From positions 1 through 34,446 of the forward strand of contig CAYUHA010000001.1 of the NCBI GenBank assembly GCA_964444395.1: a stretch of DNA of 34,446 nucleotides, given 5' to 3'. The notes beneath the pieces are model-generated. The model was not told the DNA's origin. It did not search any database and saw nothing but the letters and a program-made list of their open reading frames with translations. Of this stretch, positions 4,769 to 16,041 are shown piece after piece. Origin of the DNA: an uncultured Candidatus Saccharibacteria bacterium. Lineage in GTDB: Bacteria; Patescibacteriota; Minisyncoccia; Minisyncoccales; CAYUHA01. Every line of letters starts with the position of its first letter. Within the stretch, counting starts at the first letter, position 1. A program made the translations under genes and the position numbers.

Positions 4769-5728
4769 ATGTTGAAAAAAAACAATAAACCAATCCCCCA
4801 GCATTTAAATGATTTTTTGGACTGGCTTGATATAGAAAAAGGACTTTCTTCTAAAACACAAGAAAATTACGCAAGATTTTTAAAAAGATTTTTATATTGG
4901 TTAAAAGTAAGCAAATTAGAAAAATTAAAACCTCACGAACTAACTCCTGAACATATTTGGGAATATCGCGTATTTCTTTCTCGTAAATACCCATCAAAAA
5001 CAAAAAAACCTCTTAAAAGAAGCACTCAAAATTATTATTTAATCGCCTTGAGAGCTCTTCTAAGTTATTTTGCAGCGAAGAATATATTCTCTCTGCCAGC
5101 AGATAAAATAAAACTCTCTAAAACAGGAAAAGATAAAATAGTAAATTTCTTAAATTTAGAGCAATTAGAAAAACTATTTTCAGCCCCTGATACTTCAACT
5201 ACTCAAGGATTGAGAGATAGAGCTATTTTAGAAACCTTATTTTCTACAGGAATGAGAATAGCTGAATTGGTTGCTTTAAATCGAGAACAAATTAAAGTAA
5301 AACCCGAAACAAAGGAATTGGAGCTTGGAATTATTGGCAAAGGAGGGCGATCTCGAACTGTTTATTTTTCAGAACGCGCTCTAATTTGGCTAAAAAAATA
5401 CCTTGAAACTCGAAATGACCGAGAAAAAGCTTTATTTATCAATTATAGAAGTAAAAAAGGAGCTCCTCGAAGGCTAACTCCTCGTTCAATTGAAAAAATA
5501 ATAAAAAAATACTCTATTCTTACTGGACTGCCCATTACTACCACTCCACATGTTTTACGACATAGCTTTGCCACTGATCTATTAAGTCAAGGAGTAGATA
5601 TAAGAACTGTCCAGGAGTTTTTGGGACATAAAAGTATCTCTGCCACTCAAATTTACACTCATGTTACAAGTAAAATGCTTCGAGATATACATAGAAAATT
5701 TCATAGCGGCAGAAAACTAAAAGAATAA
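4769..5728 (+). CDS. xerC: Tyrosine site-specific recombinase, XerC/XerD-like
   Basis: Catalytic-domain motifs 'STGMRIAEL' (Arg), 'HVLRHSFATDLL' (H-x-x-R) and 'LGHKSISATQIYTHV' (His and Tyr nucleophile). N-terminal SAM-like core-binding region. Confidence 0.85.
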   Translation: MLKKNNKPIPQHLNDFLDWLDIEKGLSSKTQENYARFLKRFLYWLKVSKLEKLKPHELTPEHIWEYRVFLSRKYPSKTKKPLKRSTQNYYLIALRALLSYFAAKNIFSLPADKIKLSKTGKDKIVNFLNLEQLEKLFSAPDTSTTQGLRDRAILETLFSTGMRIAELVALNREQIKVKPETKELELGIIGKGGRSRTVYFSERALIWLKKYLETRNDREKALFINYRSKKGAPRRLTPRSIEKIIKKYSILTGLPITTTPHVLRHSFATDLLSQGVDIRTVQEFLGHKSISATQIYTHVTSKMLRDIHRKFHSGRKLKE

Positions 5729-5819
5729 AAATAAAAAAAGAAAAACCTTGTATAATTTAATACGCTATACTTATAGCCGACTCATATACTAGTTTAATAC
5801 CAACTTAGCAAAAATGCGT

Positions 5820-5969
5820 ATTTATCATCTTTCTTTTTTCTTTTTTTCTTTTTTTATTTTTTTATTTTTTTATTTTTTATTTTTTATTTTTCTTTTTTCT
5901 CTTCTCTCCTTTCTCTACTCTTTCTCTTCTCTCTTTTTCTTTTTTCTTTTTCTCTTCCTCTTCTTTTTT
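5820..5969. repeat. ~150-nt almost pure polypyrimidine (T/C) low-complexity tract on the + strand
   Basis: Runs of t and c with only a handful of a and g. It produces the spurious poly-Phe/Leu/Ser ORF 5814..6011. Confidence 0.9.
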
Positions 5970-6011
5970 TCATTCCACAAAAGTGTCCGATCGGACACTT
6001 TTGTGGAATGA
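5970..6011. repeat. 42-nt perfect palindrome, copy 1 of a twice-occurring element
   Basis: 'tcattccacaaaagtgtccga|tcggacacttttgtggaatga'. A 40-nt stretch (5972-6011) is identical at 31422-31461. It sits between the convergent xerC-like gene and uppS. Confidence 0.9.
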
Positions 6012-6014
6012 ATA

Positions 6015-6704
6015 TTATTTTCCAAATCTTCTTTGTCGCCTATCGTATTCTTTTAAAGCTTGGTCTAAATCCTTCTCATTAAAATCTGGCCAATATTTTT
6101 TTGAGAAATAAAGCTCACTGTAAGCAGCTTGCCAAAGTACAAAATTAGAAAGACGTTTTTCTCCTCCTGCGCGTATGATTAAATCTGGCGCAGGAAGGCC
6201 AGCAGTTGAAAGGTAATCTTCTATTAATTCCTCGGTGATTTTTCCTGCCGGGATTTTTTCACTAATAATTTTCTGAACTGCTTGGACAATATCCCATTTT
6301 CCCCCATAACTTACCGCTAAATTTAAATAAAGTTTAGTATTGTCTTTGGTTAAATTTTCTACTTGCTCTATTATTTTTTGTAAAGATTTCGGCAGTCTTT
6401 GCTTTTGCCCAATTATCTTTACCCTTACTCCCTCTTTTTCGTATCTCTTTTTCTTTATATTTTGAGACAAACCTTTCTCAAATAATTTCATTAAATACTC
6501 AACTTCTTCTTTTGACCTATTCCAATTTTCAGTAGAAAAGCCAAAAGCAGTCAAAATCTTCACTCCCCTATCTCTGCACCATTCACAAAACTTTGTCAAA
6601 TTTTGAAAACCTTGCCAATGTCCTTTAAAAGTAGGCAAACCCCTCTGCCGGGCCCAACGACGATTACCATCTGGAAATAAAACAATATGTTGCGGAATCT
6701 TCAT
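6015..6704 (-). CDS. uppS: Undecaprenyl diphosphate synthase (cis-prenyltransferase)
   Basis: 'LFPDGNRRWARQRG', 'FSTENWNRS' and 'IRAGGEKRLSNFVLWQAAYSELYF' are hallmark UPPS motifs. Confidence 0.92.
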   Translation of the reverse strand: MKIPQHIVLFPDGNRRWARQRGLPTFKGHWQGFQNLTKFCEWCRDRGVKILTAFGFSTENWNRSKEEVEYLMKLFEKGLSQNIKKKRYEKEGVRVKIIGQKQRLPKSLQKIIEQVENLTKDNTKLYLNLAVSYGGKWDIVQAVQKIISEKIPAGKITEELIEDYLSTAGLPAPDLIIRAGGEKRLSNFVLWQAAYSELYFSKKYWPDFNEKDLDQALKEYDRRQRRFGK

Positions 6705-6728
6705 AACTCCCTATGAAATTACGAATTT

Positions 6729-6959
6729 TTACAAATATACGAATAAATCTATAAATCTATTCGTATTATTAGTATATATTCGTATGTTAATATTGCGTTT
6801 TTCAAATTTAATTGGTTCTTTTTCTTTCTGTTTTGCCGTAATATATCCTACAGCAAAAGAAAGTAAAGAAATTAAAATAACACCGATTACTAAAATTATA
6901 TCATTCTGATATTTTTTGACAAATTGTAAAAATTTTGATAACATTAACAATCGAATCAT
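6729..6959 (-). CDS. Hypothetical small single-pass membrane protein
   Basis: One TM segment 'IILVIGVILISLLSFAVGYI'. The 3' end runs into a TACGAAT-type repeat, so the true extent is uncertain. Confidence 0.35.
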   Translation of the reverse strand: MIRLLMLSKFLQFVKKYQNDIILVIGVILISLLSFAVGYITAKQKEKEPIKFEKRNINIRIYTNNTNRFIDLFVYL

Positions 6960-7041
6960 CTCATCTTAACATATATTATCAACATTTAACACTTTTACTA
7001 TTAGTTAAATGTTATAAATGTTAAGATGTTAAAATGATTTT

Positions 7042-7314
7042 ATGGCAAAAACTAAAGCAGCTGGTGCAACAAAATTAGGAAGAGATTCAGAATCTAAAAG
7101 ATTAGGAGTTAAACTTTTTGAAGGCCAAACAGCCCGGCCCGGAATGATTATTGTCCGCCAAAGAGGCACAAAATTTCTTCCAGGGAAAAATGTTAAACAA
7201 GGAAATGACTATACTCTTTATGCAACTAAACAGGGAGTAGTTAAATTCACGACAAAAAGAATTAGACAATTCAACAACTCGCAAAGAAAGGCTAAAGTGG
7301 TTAATGTCATATAA
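7042..7314 (+). CDS. rpmA: 50S ribosomal protein L27
   Basis: '[17 protein letters not shown]...[16 protein letters not shown]' matches the L27 core. Confidence 0.92.
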
Positions 7315-7319
7315 TATAA

Positions 7320-7406
7320 CACTAATCTATAAATGAAATGCTAATCTACGAATTATAATGCGAATCTACAAATGATATGCTAATCTACGGACTTGCTAAT
7401 ATTGCC
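7320..7406. repeat. About 4.5 tandem copies of a degenerate ~19-nt unit (atgctaatctacgaatt-like)
   Basis: Units begin at 7320, 7338, 7358, 7377 and 7395. They share the 'ctacgaa' core seen in other intergenic repeats. Confidence 0.75.
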
Positions 7407-7521
7407 GAAAACAGAAATCAATTAACAGAGAACAAAAAACAGTAGTGAAATCAGAAAACAGAAATTGGTTTTTTGTCTTCCATTTTCTGTACGGACTTCG
7501 GTTTTCCAATAACTTGTTTCT
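7407..7521. repeat. ~115-nt imperfect palindromic element, copy downstream of pyrG
   Basis: Core 7441-7476 'agtagtgaaatcagaaaacagaaattggttttttgt' matches 9280-9315 with 2 mismatches. The arms are rich in cagaaaa / ttttctg and fold back around 'gaaattggtttt'. Confidence 0.8.
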
Positions 7522-7577
7522 ATCTTCTCTTTCTTTTAGTGGTTCGCATAATTAGTATATTAATTCGCATATCCAAA

Positions 7578-9200
7578 TTATAATTTTATCGCTCTTCTTA
7601 TAAATTCTTTAAACAATGGATGCGGATTTAACGGCCTCGATTTAAATTCAGGATGAAACTGGACAGCAACAAAAAATGGATGATTTTTAAGCTCAACAAT
7701 CTCTACTAAATCTCTTTGAGGGTTAATTCCTGCCATTATCATTCCTTTTTTCTCTAAAATTTCTCTAAAGTTATTATTTAATTCATAGCGATGTCGGTGA
7801 CGTTCTAATATATCTCTACATCTATTGTACGCCTTAAAACTAATTGTCCCTGGCTTAATTCTACAATGATAATCCCCTAACCTCATTGTTGCTCCATATT
7901 TTTTTTCTTTTAAAAGAACTTTTTGTTCCGGCATTACATCAATTATCGAATTCTCACAGTTTTGAACAAATTCAGAAGAATTTGCTTTTTTGATTCTACA
8001 TACATTTCTAGCAAACTCAATTACTGCCAATTGCATTCCTAAACAAAGTCCCAAAAAAGGGATTTTATTTTTTCGGCAAAACTCAATCGTTTTTATCTTT
8101 CCTTCCACTCCCCTTCCTCCAAAGCCGCCAGGAATAATTATCCCATCAAAGCTTTTTAATTCTTTAATTAAATTAGGGCTAGTTTCATATTTTTCTGCGG
8201 ATATCCAAGAAATTTGAGGTTTTCTTTTATGAAACCAACAAGCATGTTTAATTGCTTCAATTACAGAAATATAAGAATCTATTAAAGTAAACTTACCGAT
8301 TTTAAAATATTTCCCTACTACTCCAATTTTTATTGATTTTTGGAACTTATTAATATTATTCACAAATTCCCTCCATCTTTTTAAATCATTTTTTCTTTGC
8401 TTCATCCCAAATTTTTTTAATATGCGATTACCTAAATTTTCTTTTTCAAAATTAACAGGTATTTCATAAATTGTTTCGACATCAGGAGCAGAAACAATAT
8501 CTTCTTTTGCTATATTACAAAAAATTGAGATTTTTCTTTTTCTTGGTTCGTCTAAAGGAACTTCTGAACGAGCAAGAATTATGTCTGGCTGAAGTCCAAC
8601 TGCATTTAAAGACCTTACTGCTCCCTGAGTTGGTTTGGTTTTCATTTCGCCGATTATACTTGGAATAGGTAGATAACTAACCAAAATTAAAAGAACATTC
8701 TTGGGGTGAAAAAGCTTTAAAATTCTTACCGCTTCTAAAAACAGCATATTTTGATATTCACCAACTGTTCCTCCGATCTCTACTAAAATAAAATCGGCTT
8801 TATTCTTTCTTTCCACCTTTTTAATTTGACTAATTACTTGCAAAGGAATATCCGGAACCACTTCCACACATCTGCCATTATATTCTAAATTTCTTTCTTT
8901 ATTTATAACTGTCTGATATATTCTACCAGTAGTAATATAATTATCAGAAGTTAAGTCCTGATCTAAAAATCTTTCATAATTTCCAATATCTTGATCACAC
9001 TCTACCCCGTCTTTAGTAACAAAAACCTCGCCATGCTCAAGAGGATTCATTGTTCCAGCATCAACATTTATATAAGGATCAATCTTGATTGCAGCAACTT
9101 TAAAACCTTTGCTTTGTAAAATTTTTCCAATACTGGCTGTAGCTACTCCCTTCCCTAATCCAGATATTACTCCTCCTGTAATGAAAATATAATGCGCCAT
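7578..9200 (-). CDS. pyrG: CTP synthase
   Basis: 'FITGGVISGLGKG' P-loop-like N-terminus, GATase 'GLCLGMQ' Cys, 'HRHRYE'. Confidence 0.95.
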   Translation of the reverse strand: MAHYIFITGGVISGLGKGVATASIGKILQSKGFKVAAIKIDPYINVDAGTMNPLEHGEVFVTKDGVECDQDIGNYERFLDQDLTSDNYITTGRIYQTVINKERNLEYNGRCVEVVPDIPLQVISQIKKVERKNKADFILVEIGGTVGEYQNMLFLEAVRILKLFHPKNVLLILVSYLPIPSIIGEMKTKPTQGAVRSLNAVGLQPDIILARSEVPLDEPRKRKISIFCNIAKEDIVSAPDVETIYEIPVNFEKENLGNRILKKFGMKQRKNDLKRWREFVNNINKFQKSIKIGVVGKYFKIGKFTLIDSYISVIEAIKHACWFHKRKPQISWISAEKYETSPNLIKELKSFDGIIIPGGFGGRGVEGKIKTIEFCRKNKIPFLGLCLGMQLAVIEFARNVCRIKKANSSEFVQNCENSIIDVMPEQKVLLKEKKYGATMRLGDYHCRIKPGTISFKAYNRCRDILERHRHRYELNNNFREILEKKGMIMAGINPQRDLVEIVELKNHPFFVAVQFHPEFKSRPLNPHPLFKEFIRRAIKL

Positions 9201-9249
9201 AATATATAATCCTAAAAAAGTTTAACTTTAAGGGTTACGATGCTTAAAG

Positions 9250-9372
9250 ACGGAAATCAGTTAATAGAAAACAGAAAATAGTAGCGAAATCAGAAAACAG
9301 AAATTGGTTTTCTGTTTTCTGTTTTCCGTTTTCTACACGGATTTCTGCTTTCTAACAACCGATTTCCGTTTT
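9250..9372. repeat. ~120-nt imperfect palindromic element, copy upstream of pyrG / downstream of rplI
   Basis: Same family and orientation as 7407-7521. Terminal arms 'cggaaatcag...' and '...ccgatttccg' are complementary. Confidence 0.8.
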
Positions 9373-9439
9373 TCATATAATCTGCGATATAATATAGGCT
9401 TCGCTATTGTAACTATTTAATGCGATTTTTGTTTAGATT

Positions 9440-9889
9440 TTAGTCTTCATCTTCAGCAACTATTACTTTTATCTCTGCTTCTAAATTATGTTTAAAATGA
9501 ATCTTAACGGGAAATTCGCCTAGCTCTTTAATTGGCTGAACTAACTCAATTTGGTCTTTTTTAATTTTAAACCCAAGTTCTTTTATCTTCTCACAAACTT
9601 TTTTAGAATCAATCGACTCAAAAAGCTGACCCTCCTCTCCAACTTTAACCGGGATTACCACTTCTAAACCATCAACACTGGAAGCCAAACTTTGAACCTT
9701 TTGCAGCTCACTTTCTGCTTTTTTTGCTTCGGTTTCTTTTTGGAGTTCCAACCATTTCATCATTTTTTCAGTAGCTGGTTTTGCTAAATTTTTAGGAAAT
9801 AAAAAATTTCTGGCGTACCCGTCTGCCACTTCCTTTATTTCATATTTTTTCCCAAGGTTTTTTATATCTTGTAATAATATTATTTTCAT
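9440..9889 (-). CDS. rplI: 50S ribosomal protein L9
   Basis: N-terminal '[32 protein letters not shown]' is the canonical L9 N-domain. Confidence 0.9.
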
Positions 9890-9959
9890 ATTCTCATTTT
9901 AACATTTTAATTTAACATTTTACACAATATTATTAAGAATAATTGAATGATTATCCTAT

Positions 9960-11192
9960 TTATTTCATCTCTCTAATTACTTCAATTGCTTTATCTAGCT
10001 GAGGATCTCTTTCTTCTTTATAATCCTCCTCGGTCATCTCTATTTTTACATCTGGCTCTAATCCCTTGTCAGCAATAAGTTCTCCTTTCGGAGTCAACCA
10101 CTTAGCTATAGTTATTTTCAAACTGGAGCCGTCTCTCAATCTCTCTAACTCCTGAACCGAACCCTTGCCAAATGATTTCTCTCCAATTAATTTTACTCCT
10201 CGATTATCCCTCAATGCTCCTGCTAAAATTTCTGACCCAGAAGCAGAACCTTGATTTATCAAAATTACCAAAGGATAAGGCAAAAGCTTAGCATTTCCTT
10301 TAGCTTTATATTCTTTTCTTTCTTTTCCTTCACCAAAATCTTCAATTACTACAACTTCTCCTCGCTTTAAGAACCAGCCTGCAATATCCTGAGCTACCTC
10401 TAAATATCCTCCGGGATTATTTCTTAAGTCTAAAATTATTTTTTCAGCACTGGAATTTAAAATTTCAACAGCTGCTTTCTTAAAATCAAAAGAAGCTTTT
10501 TCGCTAAACTGATAAAGTTTAAGATAAGCAATATCTTTTTTTCCATCAGGTTGACCTGCTGAAGAAAGTAGTTTCCACTTTAAACAAGGTATTTCAATTA
10601 CTCCCCTTGTAATTTCAAAATCTTTTGCAGTGTGCCATCCTTCTCGAAAAATAGTCAAAGTAACCTTGGTTCCTTTTTTGCCGCGAATAAGTTTTACTGC
10701 TTCCTCAATAGTCAAATCTCTAGTATAAGTATCATCTACTTTTATAATCTTATCTCCTGCCCGAAGTCCTGCCTTCTGAGCAGGAGTGCCTTCTAAAGGC
10801 GCAATAACTGTAAGCTCTCCTTTCCTTATGCCAATTTCCATACCAACCCCTTCAAATACTCCAGAAACATCCTCAGTAAATATTTTAGTATCTTCTGGAG
10901 GCAAAAATACTGTATAAGGATCTTTTAGGGATTTTACCATTCCAGAAACCGCACCATAAATCATTTTTTGATAATCTAATCTTTCCGGCTCAACAAATTT
11001 CTTCTCCAATATTCTCCAGGCCTTCCAAAATAAAGAAAAATCCACTCCTTCCGGTTTTTCAAGGGTCTGATTAATTACTCCTGAAATTGGAGGTTCTGGT
11101 TTTTGAAGCTGGCCGATATAAAAACCAAAACTAAAAATTGCTACAACACCTATTAATATAAAAATTTGAAAAAATACCTTTTTAGATTTCAT
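9960..11192 (-). CDS. S41 family C-terminal processing (tail-specific) peptidase with PDZ domain
   Basis: N-terminal TM anchor, PDZ 'GMEIG...APLEGTPAQKAGLRAGDKI', catalytic region 'INQGSASGSEILAGAL' and 'GEKSFGKGSVQ'. Confidence 0.88.
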   Translation of the reverse strand: MKSKKVFFQIFILIGVVAIFSFGFYIGQLQKPEPPISGVINQTLEKPEGVDFSLFWKAWRILEKKFVEPERLDYQKMIYGAVSGMVKSLKDPYTVFLPPEDTKIFTEDVSGVFEGVGMEIGIRKGELTVIAPLEGTPAQKAGLRAGDKIIKVDDTYTRDLTIEEAVKLIRGKKGTKVTLTIFREGWHTAKDFEITRGVIEIPCLKWKLLSSAGQPDGKKDIAYLKLYQFSEKASFDFKKAAVEILNSSAEKIILDLRNNPGGYLEVAQDIAGWFLKRGEVVVIEDFGEGKERKEYKAKGNAKLLPYPLVILINQGSASGSEILAGALRDNRGVKLIGEKSFGKGSVQELERLRDGSSLKITIAKWLTPKGELIADKGLEPDVKIEMTEEDYKEERDPQLDKAIEVIREMK

Positions 11193-11289
11193 ATTCCTGT
11201 ATTTTAATGTATTTTAACAAATAAAAAAGTCAATAACAAGTTGTTGCATAGAATACTAACATTCTAGAAAGTCCAATAGATAAAAAGAG

Positions 11290-11470
11290 TATAGCTATTC
11301 TCTTTTAATCTTCTTCTTCTTTTAATCTCCCTTTCTCCTCTCCCTTTCCTTAATTTTCCTCTCCCCCTTTTCTTATTTCTCCCCCTCCTTTGAAGAGGGA
11401 GGATTAAGGAAGGAGAGGGCTTTTTTCCTCTCCCCTCTCCCCTTCTCTATTCTTTCCTCTTTACGATTTA
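11290..11470. repeat. CT/GA-rich low-complexity block carrying the recurrent CCTCC...GGAGG hairpin motif
   Basis: Contains 'tctccccctcctttgaagagggaggattaaggaaggagaggg' (11378-11419). Related copies lie at 23020-23066 and 24180-24223. Confidence 0.8.
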
Positions 11471-11523
11471 CACTCTGTTTAAAGAGCTTATTGTTATAAA
11501 ATTATAAATAAATATAAAGATAT

Positions 11524-11572
11524 AATTCAAAAGGGCTTATTGCTTAAGTTAAGCAATAAGCCCTTTTGAATT
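11524..11572 (-). terminator. 49-nt perfect palindromic hairpin, terminator-like, closing the rSAM/peptide/methyltransferase unit (copy 1)
   Basis: 'aattcaaaagggcttattgcttaa g ttaagcaataagcccttttgaatt'. GGG/CCC stem base followed by TTTT in both directions. It lies 21 nt after the methyltransferase stop. Confidence 0.65.
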
Positions 11573-11592
11573 ACAATTTGAATTGCAAGAGA

Positions 11593-12444
11593 TTATTTTC
11601 GGTTCCTTACTGCATAAGATATATACCAATCATTTAACACTGGCAAATAATCTCCTTTTTCATTCCATCGCCCTTCAAAAAATATTTTGTGCTCTATATT
11701 ACAAATGCCGGCATTTTTCAAAGCGCTCACAATCATTTCTTTTGTAAGAAAATTAATGTTATGTTTTTTGGCCCGCAAGAAACTTTTTGAGCCCTTCCTA
11801 TAATGAATACCACTTGCCACAAAATATCCTTCTTTTTTCAAAACTCGTATGGCTTCTTTAATGGCTTCTTTCATTTTTGGCTCGTTCAAACCGTGCCAAG
11901 AAGATACGCTGTCAAAAACACCATTCTTGAAAGGCATACTTCTGGCATCAGCGCATATTATTGAAACCCTGCTATATTTCTTTATCTTCTTCAAAAAATA
12001 CTGGAGTTCTAAACAGATAGAATAACTGTGTTCAAGGGCAACAATTTCTCCTTTTGCCACTGAAATGATATTTCTTAGAAATCTTCCTGTCCCGGTGGCA
12101 AAATCAAGATGAACCGAATTCTTGCTTCTTTTGATTGAGGAAAGCATCCACTGCCATTCTTTCCTAAGTGCCTTCCGCTCTTCTCTTGAAAAAAGAAGTA
12201 TCCATTTTTTGGGAATTTCTTGGGCAAGGGTAGTTTTTCTTAAATTTTGCACAGTTCTTTTTGTCGGCTTTTTGCAGGAAGAGATAAAGCAGGTTATTCC
12301 GTTTTTGATAGGAAATTTTTTATTGCATATTTCACATCGCAATTCGCCGTCAAGTATTCTTTCTCTTGTTTTTTTATGGATTGAAAATTTAAGAGTGCGA
12401 TGACAGGTTGGGCAGGCAAGTTGATTTAAAATTTTAACTTTCAT
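11593..12444 (-). CDS. Class I SAM-dependent methyltransferase with N-terminal Trm112-like zinc ribbon
   Basis: 'CPTC...(24 aa)...CEIC' ribbon with 'PIKNGI'. Motif I 'HLDFATGTGRF', acidic post-I 'VALEHS', 'ADARSMPFKNGVFDSV', 'LKKEGYF'. Confidence 0.8.
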   Translation of the reverse strand: MKVKILNQLACPTCHRTLKFSIHKKTRERILDGELRCEICNKKFPIKNGITCFISSCKKPTKRTVQNLRKTTLAQEIPKKWILLFSREERKALRKEWQWMLSSIKRSKNSVHLDFATGTGRFLRNIISVAKGEIVALEHSYSICLELQYFLKKIKKYSRVSIICADARSMPFKNGVFDSVSSWHGLNEPKMKEAIKEAIRVLKKEGYFVASGIHYRKGSKSFLRAKKHNINFLTKEMIVSALKNAGICNIEHKIFFEGRWNEKGDYLPVLNDWYISYAVRNRK

Positions 12445-12546
12445 ATTTTTGTTATAATATCACATTAAACGGTTAATCGCAATAAAAAGCCCCAAGTTTT
12501 GGTTGTTGTGTAACTTGAGGCGTTGCACTTTTGTGCTTTTGTACTG

Positions 12547-12702
12547 TCAGCTACCTTTCTTCGGCGAGTAAGGCGTGCCACAGTACTTCCGAGAGGTTGT
12601 CGGACAGTTGAAGGAAAGTTCTTTTGCTTCCTTCTCTGTCCTGATGAGAGGCTTCTCATACCTCTTTCTCTCTGTCGTTGTAGCGGCCTTTACCCTTTTC
12701 AT
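12547..12702 (-). CDS. Unannotated 51-aa basic, Cys-containing peptide (candidate RiPP precursor)
   Basis: Hand-translated: MKRVKAATTTERKRYEKPLIRTEKEAKELSFNCPTTSRKYCGTPYSPKKGS*. ATG at 12702-12700. GGAGG (complement of 12711-12715) lies 8 nt upstream, inside the rSAM 3' end. The ATG is 5 nt after the rSAM TGA (12710-12708). Too short for the supplied ORF track. Confidence 0.6.
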   Translation of the reverse strand: MKRVKAATTTERKRYEKPLIRTEKEAKELSFNCPTTSRKYCGTPYSPKKGS

Positions 12703-12707
12703 GGCGT

Positions 12708-13727
12708 TCACCTCCTTTTCTTGTTGAGGGTTCTCATGTATTCCGCCTCTTTACATACTCTTGGAGGCGGAGCGAACAGATTTCCTGTTTCAACGAGATT
12801 CAAGCCGGGACACGGTCGACAATAAGCAAAAAGTTTACAGTTGGCACACTTTGGCATATCAGAGAATCTGATTACCCGAAACGCCTTGAGTTCGGGAGAG
12901 TTACTCCATATTTCAGAGAAAGATCGCTCTCGAAGACTGCCACACTCTATTGGAACCTGAATGCATGGAGTGACTACGCCATAGGGAGAAATGTAGCAGG
13001 ACATGTGTGCGGCGCCACACGGAATTTTATTGAACACCCCTGAGTATCCTTGAAGAGGATCAGGGTCGGGTTCGTACTCTTTTGAGAAGATAGGATCGCC
13101 AAGCACCTGTCTTACTTGCTGATCTGTAATGTGATACCGAAGAGGGGCTTGAGAACCATCAGTTTTAGGAGTGATGCGGTAATCTACTTGGAACTGAGCT
13201 CCTATCTCCTTTGCAAAGTTATACAGCCGGCGATAGCCGTTGATATTGCTTTGCATCAAGACTGAGAATATCTTGATAGGAACACTTCTCTCTTTTAGAG
13301 CACTGATAATTTTCAACGTCTTGGACAGCGACCCCTTTCTTTTTGTGATAGCATCATGAACCTCTGGATCGAGATCATACACACTAAAAGCAACAAGTTC
13401 AGGATGCCATTCAGTAATTTCGTCAATCATTCCCTCGTCTATAAGCGTGCCGTTGGTGAGAAGCCGTACTGCAAAATGCAGTTTCCTGGCATGTCTCACA
13501 ATTTCCGGAAGGTCTTTTCTCAGAAAGATTTCCCCGCCACTTAAGGTAAGATACAGGGTACCCGCTTCAGCTAATTGTTCGAGGATATCTTTGATTTCCT
13601 CAGTAGAGCATTCAAGCTGTTTTTTACCCTCTGTGAGATAGCAATGCACGCATCGCAGATTGCATCGATAAGTAAGATCGATGTGGGCAACAAGCGGGAT
13701 TTGTTTTCGCACCGCTTGCTCTCTCAA
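12708..13727 (-). CDS. Radical SAM enzyme with C-terminal SPASM (auxiliary 4Fe-4S) domain
   Basis: 'YRCNLRCVHCY' CX3CX2C cluster. SPASM-type Cys pattern 'CGAAHMSCYISPYGVVTPC...C...CANCKLFAYCRPC...C'. The start is a TTG in the track and is not well supported. GC is clearly higher than in neighbouring genes. Confidence 0.88.
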   Translation of the reverse strand: MREQAVRKQIPLVAHIDLTYRCNLRCVHCYLTEGKKQLECSTEEIKDILEQLAEAGTLYLTLSGGEIFLRKDLPEIVRHARKLHFAVRLLTNGTLIDEGMIDEITEWHPELVAFSVYDLDPEVHDAITKRKGSLSKTLKIISALKERSVPIKIFSVLMQSNINGYRRLYNFAKEIGAQFQVDYRITPKTDGSQAPLRYHITDQQVRQVLGDPIFSKEYEPDPDPLQGYSGVFNKIPCGAAHMSCYISPYGVVTPCIQVPIECGSLRERSFSEIWSNSPELKAFRVIRFSDMPKCANCKLFAYCRPCPGLNLVETGNLFAPPPRVCKEAEYMRTLNKKRR

Positions 13728-13798
13728 CGCCTCAAAGATCTCGGTGCCATCACTGCTTATGGCGACATCACTCCGCTCCCTGGATTGTAATTAATTGC

Positions 13799-13842
13799 AA
13801 TTCAAAAGGGCTTATTGTTTAAGTTAAGCAATAAGCCCTTTG
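13799..13842 (-). terminator. Hairpin copy 2 (imperfect), terminator-like, downstream of the M23 peptidase gene and upstream of the rSAM gene
   Basis: 'aattcaaaagggcttattgtttaagttaagcaataagccctttgc'. On the minus strand the stem is followed by TTTTGAATT. Confidence 0.6.
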
Positions 13843-13865
13843 CTTGCAAAAAAATTACAATTTTT

Positions 13866-14408
13866 TCACACTCTATAATTCTTGATAAATTTTGTTGGCG
13901 CTGCCCAATATCTCAACTTAGTCCGTTTTTGAGTTGACTTCCAATAACCAGGCAGCACCCTTCCTTCCCATGGACCTGTATAAATCGCGAAATGTAAATG
14001 TGCATCTTCCCACCAGCCGTTTTGTTGAGACCAAGCTCGACCTACCGTTCCTATTTTCTGGCCTATATCTACTCTATCCCCTTTTTCTACTAACCTATTT
14101 CCAAGATGTCCGTAAAGAGAAAAAAATACTTTTTTAGTTTTAGGATTTTTATGGGCAATAATAATGATGTTTCCCCAGTTGCGATAACCTCCCTGTTTTG
14201 GACTTTTCTTTGTAGCATGCAGTTTTGAATAAACTACTTTCCCTCTTCCTATTGCTTTAACTGGGGTTCCTGGTTTAATAATACAATCTTCTCCTAAATG
14301 CAGCCCCCAAAGTTTTCCGTCATATTCATCCCTTTGTCTAAACTTGCAATAATTTACTTTCCAGTCCTCTAAAGGAAAAACTAATTTTGAAGTATAAGGA
14401 TAAGCCAT
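13866..14408 (-). CDS. M23 (LytM-type) metallopeptidase, no evident signal peptide
   Basis: 'HLGED' (HxxxD) and 'HLHFAIY' (HxH) Zn ligand motifs. I prefer the ATG at 14408, preceded by AAAGGAGAA, over the tracked TTG start at 14459. Confidence 0.8.
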   Translation of the reverse strand: MAYPYTSKLVFPLEDWKVNYCKFRQRDEYDGKLWGLHLGEDCIIKPGTPVKAIGRGKVVYSKLHATKKSPKQGGYRNWGNIIIIAHKNPKTKKVFFSLYGHLGNRLVEKGDRVDIGQKIGTVGRAWSQQNGWWEDAHLHFAIYTGPWEGRVLPGYWKSTQKRTKLRYWAAPTKFIKNYRV

Positions 14409-14628
14409 ACTTTCTCCTTTATACCACAAAATTCTCAAAAAATCTATCAAAATCTTCAAATCTGGTCCCCTCCTTTCTTAAATTCTCAAATTTTTGAAGA
14501 ACTAAAAATAACCCTTAAATAACCTTTTTAAAAATAGTAGATTATCTGGTATTTTTTTAAATTTTTAATTTGTATTTTTGAAATTTTATATTTAATTTAT
14601 TAATTTATTTAATTTTTGATTTTTCTTA

Positions 14629-14700
14629 TGCCCCCACCAGGACTCGAACCTGGACTAATAGCTTAAAAGGCTACTACTCTGCCAATTGAGTTATGGGGGC
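14629..14700 (-). tRNA. tRNA-Lys (anticodon UUU)
   Basis: Reverse complement folds by hand: acceptor GCCCCCA/TGGGGGC, D arm ACTC/GAGT, anticodon stem GTAGC/GCTAT with loop CTTTTAA, T arm CCAGG-TTCGAGT-CCTGG, discriminator A. CCA is not encoded. Confidence 0.88.
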
Positions 14701-14827
14701 AATAAATAATTTTTAATTTTTAATTTTTAATTTTTGTTAATTTAATTTTTAATAAATTTTTATTGGAATTATATTTTTTATTTAAAATAAGTTTAAAAAT
14801 CAAAAATTAAGAAATAAAAATTAAAAG

Positions 14828-15928
14828 TTATATTCCTTCCTGCTTTAATTTTTTCAAAAGCTCTTTTTGTTTTTTATTTAAATGCTTTGGAGTTTTAATT
14901 TTAAGTTCTACATACATGCTTCCTCTTCCAAAACCAGAAAAATGAGGAATTCCTTTTCCAGAAATTCTTAATACTTTACCAGATTCTGTGCCCGCAGGGA
15001 TTTTAAGCAAAATTTTCTTTCCTTCTATAGTAGGTATTTCTATTTCATCGCCCAATACAGCTTGAGAAAAAGAAATTGGAACGGTTAAATAAAGATCATC
15101 CCCTTTTCTCTTAAAGACTGAATGAGGTTTTACTAAGATCCTAACATACAAATCACCGGATTCTCCTCCTCTTCTTCCGGCATCTCCTTTGCCTTTAATT
15201 TTTATTATCTGATTTGTATCAACTCCGGCCGGGATGAAAATTTTTATATCCTCTTCTCCTTTAATTCTGCCTTCTCCTTTGCAAACATTACAAGGTTTTT
15301 CTGGCTTAAATCCTTCTCCTCCGCATTCTGGACAAATAGTGTATTTAGTAAAAGAACCAAAAAATGTCCTCTTTATTTGCTGAACTTCTCCTGTTCCTCT
15401 ACAGGAAAAACATTCTTTTATTGGAGTGCCAGGTTCTCCTCCTTTTCCTTGACAGCGAGAACATTTAACAAATTTATATAAAGAAATTATTTTCTCTTTA
15501 TCTTTCAAAGTCTCCTCTAAAGAAATTTCTATATCAACTTCAATATCCTTACCTCTTTTAAAATCCTTTCTTTTAGAAGTTCTTCCAAATCCAAAAATTT
15601 CGTCAAACATATCTCCTAAATCTTCAAAACTTGCTTCCTTATACCAATTAGAATCAAAGCCCTGACCAGCTTCTCTCCAAAATGAACTAAAATCAAAACC
15701 TGACTGGGGACCTCCAGCGCCTTCTTCAAAAACTCGGCCAAATTGATCATACTGTGCTCTTTTCTTTTTATCAGACAAAACCTGATACGCTTCACTAATT
15801 TCCTTAAACTTTTTTTCATTTCCGCCTTTATCAGGATGATATTTGTGCGCGAGTTTTCTATATGCTTTTTTAATTTCTTGCTCTGAAGCGTCTCGAGGAA
15901 CGCCTAAAATTTTATAATAATCCTTCAT
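14828..15928 (-). CDS. dnaJ: Chaperone DnaJ (type I, with zinc-finger domain)
   Basis: J domain 'DYYKILGV...YHPD'. Four CxxCxGxG repeats: [32 protein letters not shown]. Confidence 0.95.
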
Positions 15929-16041
15929 AAAATCTCAAAACTCAAAAATCAAATCTCAAATCTGCTTAAATCTCAAAACTTTTAAATAAGATTTTATAAT
16001 TTTGAGATGTAGTTTTGACTTTTAAGATTTGATATTTGAGA

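Follow-up and report, generated by a model that had tools for sequence, protein, structure and literature searches.

A stretch of 34,446 nucleotides (nt) from an uncultured Candidatus Saccharibacteria bacterium (contig CAYUHA010000001.1, here called the window) carries on its minus strand, at 12547..12702, a small open reading frame (ORF) for a peptide of 51 amino acids (aa) plus stop codon. With a probability of about 0.78, this ORF encodes the substrate peptide of a maturase with a radical S-adenosylmethionine (rSAM) and a SPASM domain, an enzyme that depends on a recognition element (RRE) for ribosomally synthesized and post-translationally modified peptides (RiPPs). Peptide and maturase belong to a three-gene cassette, of which the copy in the window has no RRE. 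At family level the rSAM core, the SPASM domain, a fused or adjacent RRE and a co-inherited small precursor gene were all found; in the window copy the PqqD-like RRE is absent. The type of system, an RRE-dependent rSAM/SPASM RiPP, is known, while the precursor family, its partnership with a Trm112-type methyltransferase and its concentration in bacteria of the Candidate Phyla Radiation (CPR) lie outside Pfam, NCBIfam and the literature found.

The probable precursor peptide gene

The ORF runs from ATG to TGA over 12702..12547 and translates as MKRVKAATTTERKRYEKPLIRTEKEAKELSFNCPTTSRKYCGTPYSPKKGS. An earlier note on this DNA had proposed it, from a translation by hand, as a coding gene with a leader-plus-core layout coupled to an rSAM gene. 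Re-reading of the sequence confirmed its coordinates, strand and translation. Homologues were sought in the contig of the closest homologue (L088) and in 87 loci from genome and metagenome collections, each with a gene for an rSAM protein related to that of the window. A tblastn search with the peptide, which the note had recommended, detected it in 41 other rSAM-containing loci, with 28 distinct DNA versions among them. The peptide gene directly follows the rSAM gene in 39 of the 41 loci; L005 and L025 have the permuted order peptide-methyltransferase-rSAM.

Codon-level conservation was analyzed with 25 distinct sequences and 35 gap-free codons. In the frame of the ORF the ratio of nonsynonymous to synonymous differences per site (pN/pS) was 0.20 and stop codons occurred in 0 of 25 sequences, with synonymous sites near saturation (pS 0.76). 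Third positions were variable in 35 of 35 codons, first and second positions in 18 of 35. Four of the five other frames showed a pN/pS of 1.3-1.9. Among these, frame +1 had a pN/pS of 1.86 and stops in 17 of 25 sequences, and the competing ORF of the supplied track (12465..12659), which starts within the peptide ORF and is read in this frame, is not conserved across homologues. The antisense frame rc1 had a pN/pS of 0.24, yet contained stops in 9 of 25 sequences. Frameshifts or stops in the peptide frame, or conservation in another frame or at the RNA level, had been named as grounds for abandoning the ORF; they were looked for and not found, save in one lineage (L003, L037 and L038) that is described below. 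An Rfam scan of 11400..14000 gave no match in the ORF and only chance matches on palindromes. The peptide ORF is a genuine gene under purifying selection, with the leader-plus-core layout proposed, and is tied physically and evolutionarily to the rSAM gene. Short and uncalled in the annotation of this genome as it is, an origin as a chance open frame, or conservation imposed by an RNA element or by the overlapping frame 12465..12659, is ruled out by the homology across 41 loci, the codon test, with amino acids conserved despite the high pS, and the conserved Shine-Dalgarno (SD) sequence and ATG.

The ORF has not been called as a gene on an independent assembly contig that matches the window at 100 % identity over 6014..15942. 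Homologues elsewhere do get called, always as 'hypothetical protein' and with no Pfam domains. Scans of Pfam and NCBIfam at E values up to 10, six relatives included, gave no family for the peptide, and an exact-sequence look-up returned no record of the window peptide or the window methyltransferase. The precursor family, without a Pfam or NCBIfam model, often uncalled and always 'hypothetical', is invisible to annotation, so that rSAM genes of this type are annotated without a substrate.

Leader, core and fixed spacing

The leader comprises approximately residues 1-30 and carries Y15-x-x-P18; the core comprises approximately residues 31-51. Residues P18, C33, T36, C41, P47, K48, K49 and G50 are invariant, and Y15, E23, E28, P34 and G42 are nearly so. 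Positions 40 and 45 are aromatic or His in all peptides. Three aromatic residues had been named earlier as possible cross-linking sites; positions 40 and 45 were borne out by conservation, whereas F31 is not conserved as an aromatic residue. The core consensus NCPTTSxKYCGxP[FY]SPKKG is almost invariant. The peptide ends in SPKKG(S), with neither a Gly-Val-Tyr end nor an E-x3-Y motif, and the only cysteines visible as thioether donors are the two invariant ones, C33 and C41.

The leader motif has the form Y-x-x-P-x-[ILV]. Work on TbiB1 and TbiA reportedly described a YxxPxL motif in lasso leaders that is bound by a PqqD-type RRE. The small peptides of all retrieved rSAM relatives (42-84 % identity, including high-GC soil loci) share [YW]xxP. 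In 54 of 54 genuine peptide variants the first Cys lies exactly 18 residues past the aromatic residue of this motif. The second Cys follows 6-11 residues after the first, and always 8 in the clade of the window. The fixed spacing of 18 residues argues that an RRE-bound leader presents Cys33 to the active site. In one relative (P0053/P0308) the rSAM stop codon is lost, and the enzyme continues by read-through into a peptide whose core, SFGCPKITTKQCSVPIW, is divergent but keeps the C-x7-C spacing.

Expression signals

The SD sequence of the peptide gene, AAGGAGGTGA (12708..12717, minus strand), consists of two AGG Arg codons of the rSAM gene and its TGA stop. As the earlier note described, GGAGG at 12715..12711 lies 8 nt ahead of the ATG within the last rSAM codons, and the rSAM TGA (12710..12708) is separated from the ATG by 5 nt. 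The sequence AAGGAGGTGA, or a variant differing by one base, was found 6-9 nt ahead of the ATG in nearly all of 29 distinct loci, and is kept even where the peptide gene is not adjacent to the rSAM stop. In most loci it coincides with the terminal Arg-Arg-stop of the rSAM gene. Its role as the SD of the peptide gene accounts for the invariance of the two Arg residues at the C-terminus of the enzyme. The conserved overlap of SD and rSAM stop indicates that the two genes are read from one mRNA. The translational coupling proposed earlier stands for the family, in which the SD in the rSAM 3' end is conserved; it does not carry over simply to the window, where the rSAM gene is a truncated remnant whose translation is doubtful. 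Coupling is a family property, and the window peptide probably relies on its own SD and on read-through transcription. In L010-L014 the last ~30 rSAM codons, including the SD, are duplicated before the peptide gene, and the peptide keeps an SD though it lies 110-120 nt from the true rSAM stop.

Two hairpins were predicted by folding between the peptide and methyltransferase genes (12481..12536, minus strand). The first is a small hairpin, GCAC-AAAA-GUGC (12525..12536); the second is an intrinsic terminator with a stem of 12512..12521 paired with 12489..12498, followed by TTTTTATT at 12481..12488. In 27 of 29 loci a GC-rich hairpin with T-run, its stem sequence differing from locus to locus, occurs 44-76 nt past the peptide stop. 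Across the family it is preceded by a small GCRC-GNRA-GYGC hairpin, which shows GC/AU covariation in the alignment. Owing to this conserved terminator, which did not appear in the earlier note, peptide mRNA should exceed methyltransferase mRNA. As read from the sequence, the layout is the classic one in which a precursor gene shares a transcript with its enzyme gene and an attenuating terminator comes after it.

The maturase family

Close homologues of the window rSAM protein are ~454 aa long and contain PqqD (PF05402), Radical_SAM and SPASM domains, PF05402 being present in most. The window protein itself matches PF04055 (E=6.5e-26) and PF13186 (E=4e-12). The cysteines of the CX3CX2C motif (C22, C26 and C29) are invariant in alignments of 23 and 53 sequences. 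In the SPASM domain, whose cysteines are those expected to hold two auxiliary 4Fe-4S clusters, C237, C255, C262, C297, C303, C306 and C325 are invariant, and C244 and C294 near-invariant. The N-terminal domain of the family matches TbiB1, a lasso RRE (E=2e-6), and the catalytic part matches SkfB and PqqE, the latter being the second sequence match in the PDB. An AlphaFold2 (AF2) model of the maturase had a mean predicted local distance difference test score (pLDDT) of 89.9 and a predicted template modelling score (pTM) of 0.90. It was found to be closest to SkfB, SuiB, CteB and TigE, followed by PqqE and the anaerobic sulfatase-maturating enzyme (anSME); the top structural matches are three-domain RiPP maturases. 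Short forms of the enzyme (~345 aa) also occur, and a gene for a PqqD protein of 96-112 aa lies immediately upstream in 10 of 11 such loci examined. PADLOC returned only generic viperin/rSAM and methyltransferase matches, and no rSAM was found in the viral contigs scanned.

The methyltransferase and the three-gene cassette

Clustering of ORFs over the peptide-bearing loci revealed two conserved neighbours only, the rSAM gene and a gene for a methyltransferase of 283 aa (11593..12444, minus strand, in the window). The latter, a third cassette member that the earlier note had missed, was assigned with Pfam and NCBIfam: an N-terminal Trm112-like CxxC...CxxC zinc ribbon is fused to a class I SAM-dependent methyltransferase (AF2 model pLDDT 94). 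Of 34 loci with sufficiently long flanks, 31 carry this gene (it is missing from L004, L042 and L044), and its divergence tracks that of the rSAM protein. The methyltransferase family comprises 136 proteins, many encoded on the same contigs as rSAM matches. The flanking genes are otherwise unrelated between loci, which indicates that the three genes form a self-contained unit. Judged from these sequences, the cassette is [PqqD/RRE-rSAM-SPASM]-[peptide]-[Trm112-ribbon methyltransferase]. The difference in GC content between the rSAM and peptide genes (45-49 %) and the flanks (33 %) was considered as a sign of horizontal transfer and rejected, because the rSAM gene is richer in GC than its methyltransferase gene and flanks in nearly every locus.

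The truncated maturase gene of the window

The rSAM gene of the window (12708..13784, minus strand) is truncated at its 5' end and lacks the N-terminal PqqD/RRE part, ~96 codons, while the cysteines of CX3CX2C and SPASM are kept; this truncation had been overlooked. L088, which encodes a 95 %-identical protein of 454 aa (P0001), shows ungapped nucleotide identity of 96.4 % to 12448..13784 only. The window protein is homologous to P0001 only from residue 97 of the latter onward, downstream of an in-frame TAA. Beyond 13784 there are 6 unrelated bases, an in-frame TAA (13793..13791) and then a palindrome. The only possible starts are TTG at 13727 or GTG at 13712, neither with a good SD; there is no ATG, and no promoter match was found between the upstream hairpin and the gene. 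In a tblastn search with five RRE queries no RRE was detected in the rest of the 34 kb. The junction and the 49-nt repeat next to it have the identical sequence in a k=141 contig of another assembly; an assembly artefact at the hairpin repeat was rejected since this contig spans both.

The palindrome upstream of the junction is a terminator-like hairpin, 49 nt long with a perfect stem (copy A, 13793..13841), which sits 3' of an M23 peptidase gene and terminates that gene. A second copy (copy B, 11523..11578) immediately follows the methyltransferase gene. The two copies (49-60 nt) are 94-98 % identical, are both preceded by a shared AAATTGTAATT, and bracket the truncated rSAM-peptide-methyltransferase segment exactly. 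No further copies were found in the window or in 88 fetched loci. The duplicated hairpin suggests recombination at a terminator hairpin, by which the cassette would have arrived or been rearranged.

One sample from the Joint Genome Institute (JGI) is the source of both L088, the contig of the closest intact rSAM gene, and L089, that of the closest methyltransferase. Positions 1-119 of L088 and 952-1070 of L089 overlap perfectly over 119 nt in inverted orientation, so that this genome has either an inverted repeat or a methyltransferase-palindrome-rSAM order unlike that of the window. L088 departs from the window 4 nt before the start of the methyltransferase gene.

Proposed mechanism and comparison with known systems

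In the proposed mechanism the PqqD-like RRE would bind the leader via Y15-x-x-P18-x-[ILV], as lasso RREs bind YxxPxL. Binding would place Cys33, 18 residues past the Tyr, in the rSAM active site. The 5'-deoxyadenosyl radical and two auxiliary Fe-S clusters may then install 1-2 intramolecular cross-links at Cys33/Cys41, and the cross-linked product would be methylated by the methyltransferase. The cross-links are tentatively taken as thioethers of the sacti/ranthi type, the likeliest single chemistry at slightly less than even odds. Thioethers are the most economical choice because the superfamily conserves two cysteines only and the nearest structures include two thioether synthases. C-C cross-links via the conserved aromatic residues, as in SuiB, or other Cys chemistry are alternatives.

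Sactipeptide and ranthipeptide systems (AlbA-SboA, SkfB-SkfA, CteB-CteA and PapB-PapA) share with the cassette a maturase composed of an N-terminal RRE, rSAM and SPASM, and a short precursor encoded beside the enzyme with an N-terminal leader and a Cys-containing C-terminal core. SkfB and CteB are among the top structural neighbours, and the profile of AlbA aligns over its full length. However, the maturase scores far under the cut-offs for AlbA, SkfB and StsB. The peptide has two cysteines only, in a fixed C-x7-C arrangement with no recognisable CX3D/CXnT repeat, and an almost invariant core; the cassette includes a dedicated Trm112-ribbon methyltransferase and no linked protease or ABC exporter, and the thioether is putative. 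In streptide biosynthesis (StrB/SuiB-SuiA) the maturase likewise consists of RRE, rSAM and SPASM, and SuiB is among the best structural matches (template modelling score ~0.6). The core aromatics at 40 and 45 and lysines 39, 48 and 49 could in principle support a C-C cross-link. In contrast, sequence identity is ~16-18 %, a KGDGW-type motif is absent, and the superfamily keeps two cysteines rather than Lys/Trp. A resemblance to anSME is confined to a mid-rank fold match, the core (N-C-P-T-T, Y-C-G-x-P) containing no C/S-x-P/A-x-R.

For leader recognition the lasso system (TbiB1 RRE-TbiA leader; PDB 5V1U/5V1V) is a parallel: besides the TbiB1 match of the family RRE and the shared leader motif, a stand-alone PqqD of a sister clade matches lasso PqqD models. 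Unlike lasso clusters, the cassette has no lasso cyclase or leader protease and its RRE is fused to the rSAM enzyme; leader binding is putative here. The SynChlorMet (ScmC/D/E/F) and GeoRSP cassettes, themselves uncharacterised and known by their NCBIfam/TIGRFAM names, resemble the sister clades described below, in which HprK-like, PqqD and rSAM/SPASM proteins and small peptides are combined as in Scm. The sister clades match the ScmC, ScmD, ScmE and GeoRSP models weakly, all under cut-off (ScmC 24-40 of 125 bits, ScmD 37 of 100), and the window clade has the Trm112-methyltransferase in place of the HprK-like protein.

As the basic core hardly varies, a conserved target seems likelier than a fast-evolving bacteriocin. 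It is conceivable, and on balance unlikely, that the cassette makes a product of an undescribed kind, a two-Cys peptide with a new Cys-based radical modification plus methylation and a conserved cellular role in CPR/Patescibacteria, as a cofactor-like or host-interaction molecule rather than a bacteriocin. If so, the YxxP-N14-Cys...Cys superfamily, including the HprK-linked soil clades, would be one large unrecognised RiPP class. The fixed Tyr-Cys spacing and the almost invariant core provide a precise hypothesis for heterologous expression.

Alternative explanations

Several observations weigh against the view that the peptide is the substrate of an RRE-dependent maturase, crippled in the window. 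The substrate role and the chemistry, and even the direction of the relation (substrate or partner), are argued by analogy with other systems. The window rSAM protein reached the cut-off of no curated NCBIfam model, those for AlbA, SkfB, StsB, MftC and PqqE included; scores against cut-offs in bits were 105/850 for AlbA, 72/300 for SkfB, 97/625 for StsB, 126/265 for MftC, 114/381 for PqqE and 115/400 for ScmE. ORF clustering showed no conserved protease or exporter/transporter in the cassette. The structure search with the methyltransferase returned generic small-molecule methyltransferases only, which give no clue to the substrate. Extreme conservation of the core is atypical for antimicrobial RiPPs, and in L003, L037 and L038 the leader, rSAM and Trm112-methyltransferase genes are intact despite replacement of the core. 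L007 has a short form of the enzyme with no adjacent PqqD gene and may thus also lack an adjacent RRE. Finally, the truncated rSAM core of the window shows almost no decay, with only S173F on a conserved column, and the crippling of this copy is therefore putative.

The latter points bear on the alternative that survives best, namely that the cassette of the window is fully functional, with a 339-aa rSAM protein that needs no fused RRE or is served by one encoded beyond the 34 kb. We regard this as quite possible and lean against it only slightly. The truncation removes the RRE only. The ORF that is left falls ~8 residues short of the natural stand-alone forms, for example P0017 (346 aa), and its catalytic cysteines and nearly all conserved columns are intact. 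The peptide and methyltransferase genes are likewise intact and consensus-like, and L007 offers a precedent. However, the adjacent PqqD gene that accompanies nearly all short forms is lacking, the gene can start only at TTG or GTG without a good SD, and a strong hairpin with no promoter match lies upstream. In addition, comparison of the window rSAM gene with L088, the intact copy nearest to it, gave a dN/dS of 0.55, which exceeds the ratio at family level, with only 1-2 unusual substitutions. Unless another part of the genome supplies an RRE, maturation in the window probably fails; whether the copy was recently crippled or depends on such an RRE is roughly evenly balanced. The RRE-less copy is a natural experiment on lost leader recognition.

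Rather improbable is a second alternative, in which the peptide gives rise to a peptide-derived cofactor, or to a modified small effector, that is made and acts within the cell and is not exported, like pyrroloquinoline quinone (PQQ) or mycofactocin. The core is almost invariant across rSAM proteins diverged to 48 % identity and across phyla, the cassette has no exporter or leader peptidase, and it is kept in tiny CPR genomes beside housekeeping genes. The mycofactocin (MftA/B/C) and PQQ (PqqA/D/E) systems likewise pair an rSAM/SPASM enzyme with a chaperone of the PqqD type and with a very small peptide that is strongly conserved; among the NCBIfam models MftC has the longest single and best full-length alignment to the catalytic core, and PqqE ranks high. 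However, both scores are far under their cut-offs, and the peptide has neither the C-terminal Val-Tyr (GVY) of the one nor the E-x3-Y of the other. The RRE is fused at the N-terminus rather than separate, the fold neighbours are sactisynthase- and streptide-like, and no downstream Mft or Pqq genes are present. Moreover, a small, patchy family with insertion-disrupted cassettes is unlike an essential cofactor system.

That the small protein is instead an accessory, regulatory or immunity subunit of enzymes acting on something else is very unlikely. Peptide modification is as yet derived by analogy only, the methyltransferase resembles small-molecule methyltransferases, and the rSAM protein resembles AhbD/NirJ-type enzymes in the NCBIfam ranking. 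Against this, a leader-like YxxP together with a dedicated PqqD/RRE is a hallmark of peptide-substrate recognition and the spacing from motif to first Cys is fixed. Distant clades moreover have 2-3 tandem peptides with variable cores, a pattern usual for precursors and unlike that of subunits.

Distribution, rearrangements and sister clades

At 90 % identity the clade with the NCPTT...SPKKG core falls into 66 clusters, and at 50 % it has 6 representatives. When 1.84 billion representatives were searched with a profile, only 6 matched, which indicates that the family is small and tight. Its carriers are mostly labelled Parcubacteria, Paceibacterota or Patescibacteria; one metagenome-assembled genome of Thermodesulfobacteriota and one contig labelled archaeal are further carriers. 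Genomes of CPR/Patescibacteria are minimal, and to our knowledge very few biosynthetic genes have been recognised in them. A conserved, self-contained cassette for peptide modification is a rare handle on the chemistry and host interactions of these bacteria.

In L003, L037 and L038 (~5085-6036) an insertion of ~950 nt has replaced the peptide core and terminator and carries an extra gene for a class I methyltransferase of 252 aa. In L029, from ~1342 onward, an insertion sequence (IS) element encoding a DDE transposase has entered the 3' part of the rSAM gene. Together with the missing methyltransferase genes, these cases indicate that the cassette can be dispensed with and is readily rearranged; they leave the coding evidence unweakened.

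Sister clades (L045-L067 and L070-L087; rSAM identity 42-50 %) have an HprK-like P-loop gene and a separate PqqD gene. They encode one to three tandem peptides with the same YxxP leader and 18-residue Tyr-Cys spacing. Their leader, KRKPYQKPxLTxEELFEATVLxC, is kept, while the two-Cys cores vary. Literature searches on CPR radical SAM RiPPs, Trm112 in RiPPs, HprK-PqqD and SynChlorMet found no paper on the family.

Other features of the region

A tRNA-Lys(UUU) gene (14628-14701, minus strand) closely precedes the M23 peptidase gene and the cassette. It lies inside a repeat-rich spacer of 18-21 % GC (14550-14830) and may mark a hot spot of integration. Between hairpin copy B and an S41 peptidase gene, positions 11300-11460 form a purine-/pyrimidine-rich stretch of low complexity with runs of the GGGGAGAGG type and 2.8 repeats of a 23-nt unit (11332-11391), for which no explaining ORF or RNA family was found. 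The spacer between the genes for CTP synthase and ribosomal protein L9 contains an imperfect inverted repeat of 58 nt (9246-9303/9316-9373), 78 % complementary with a 12-nt loop.

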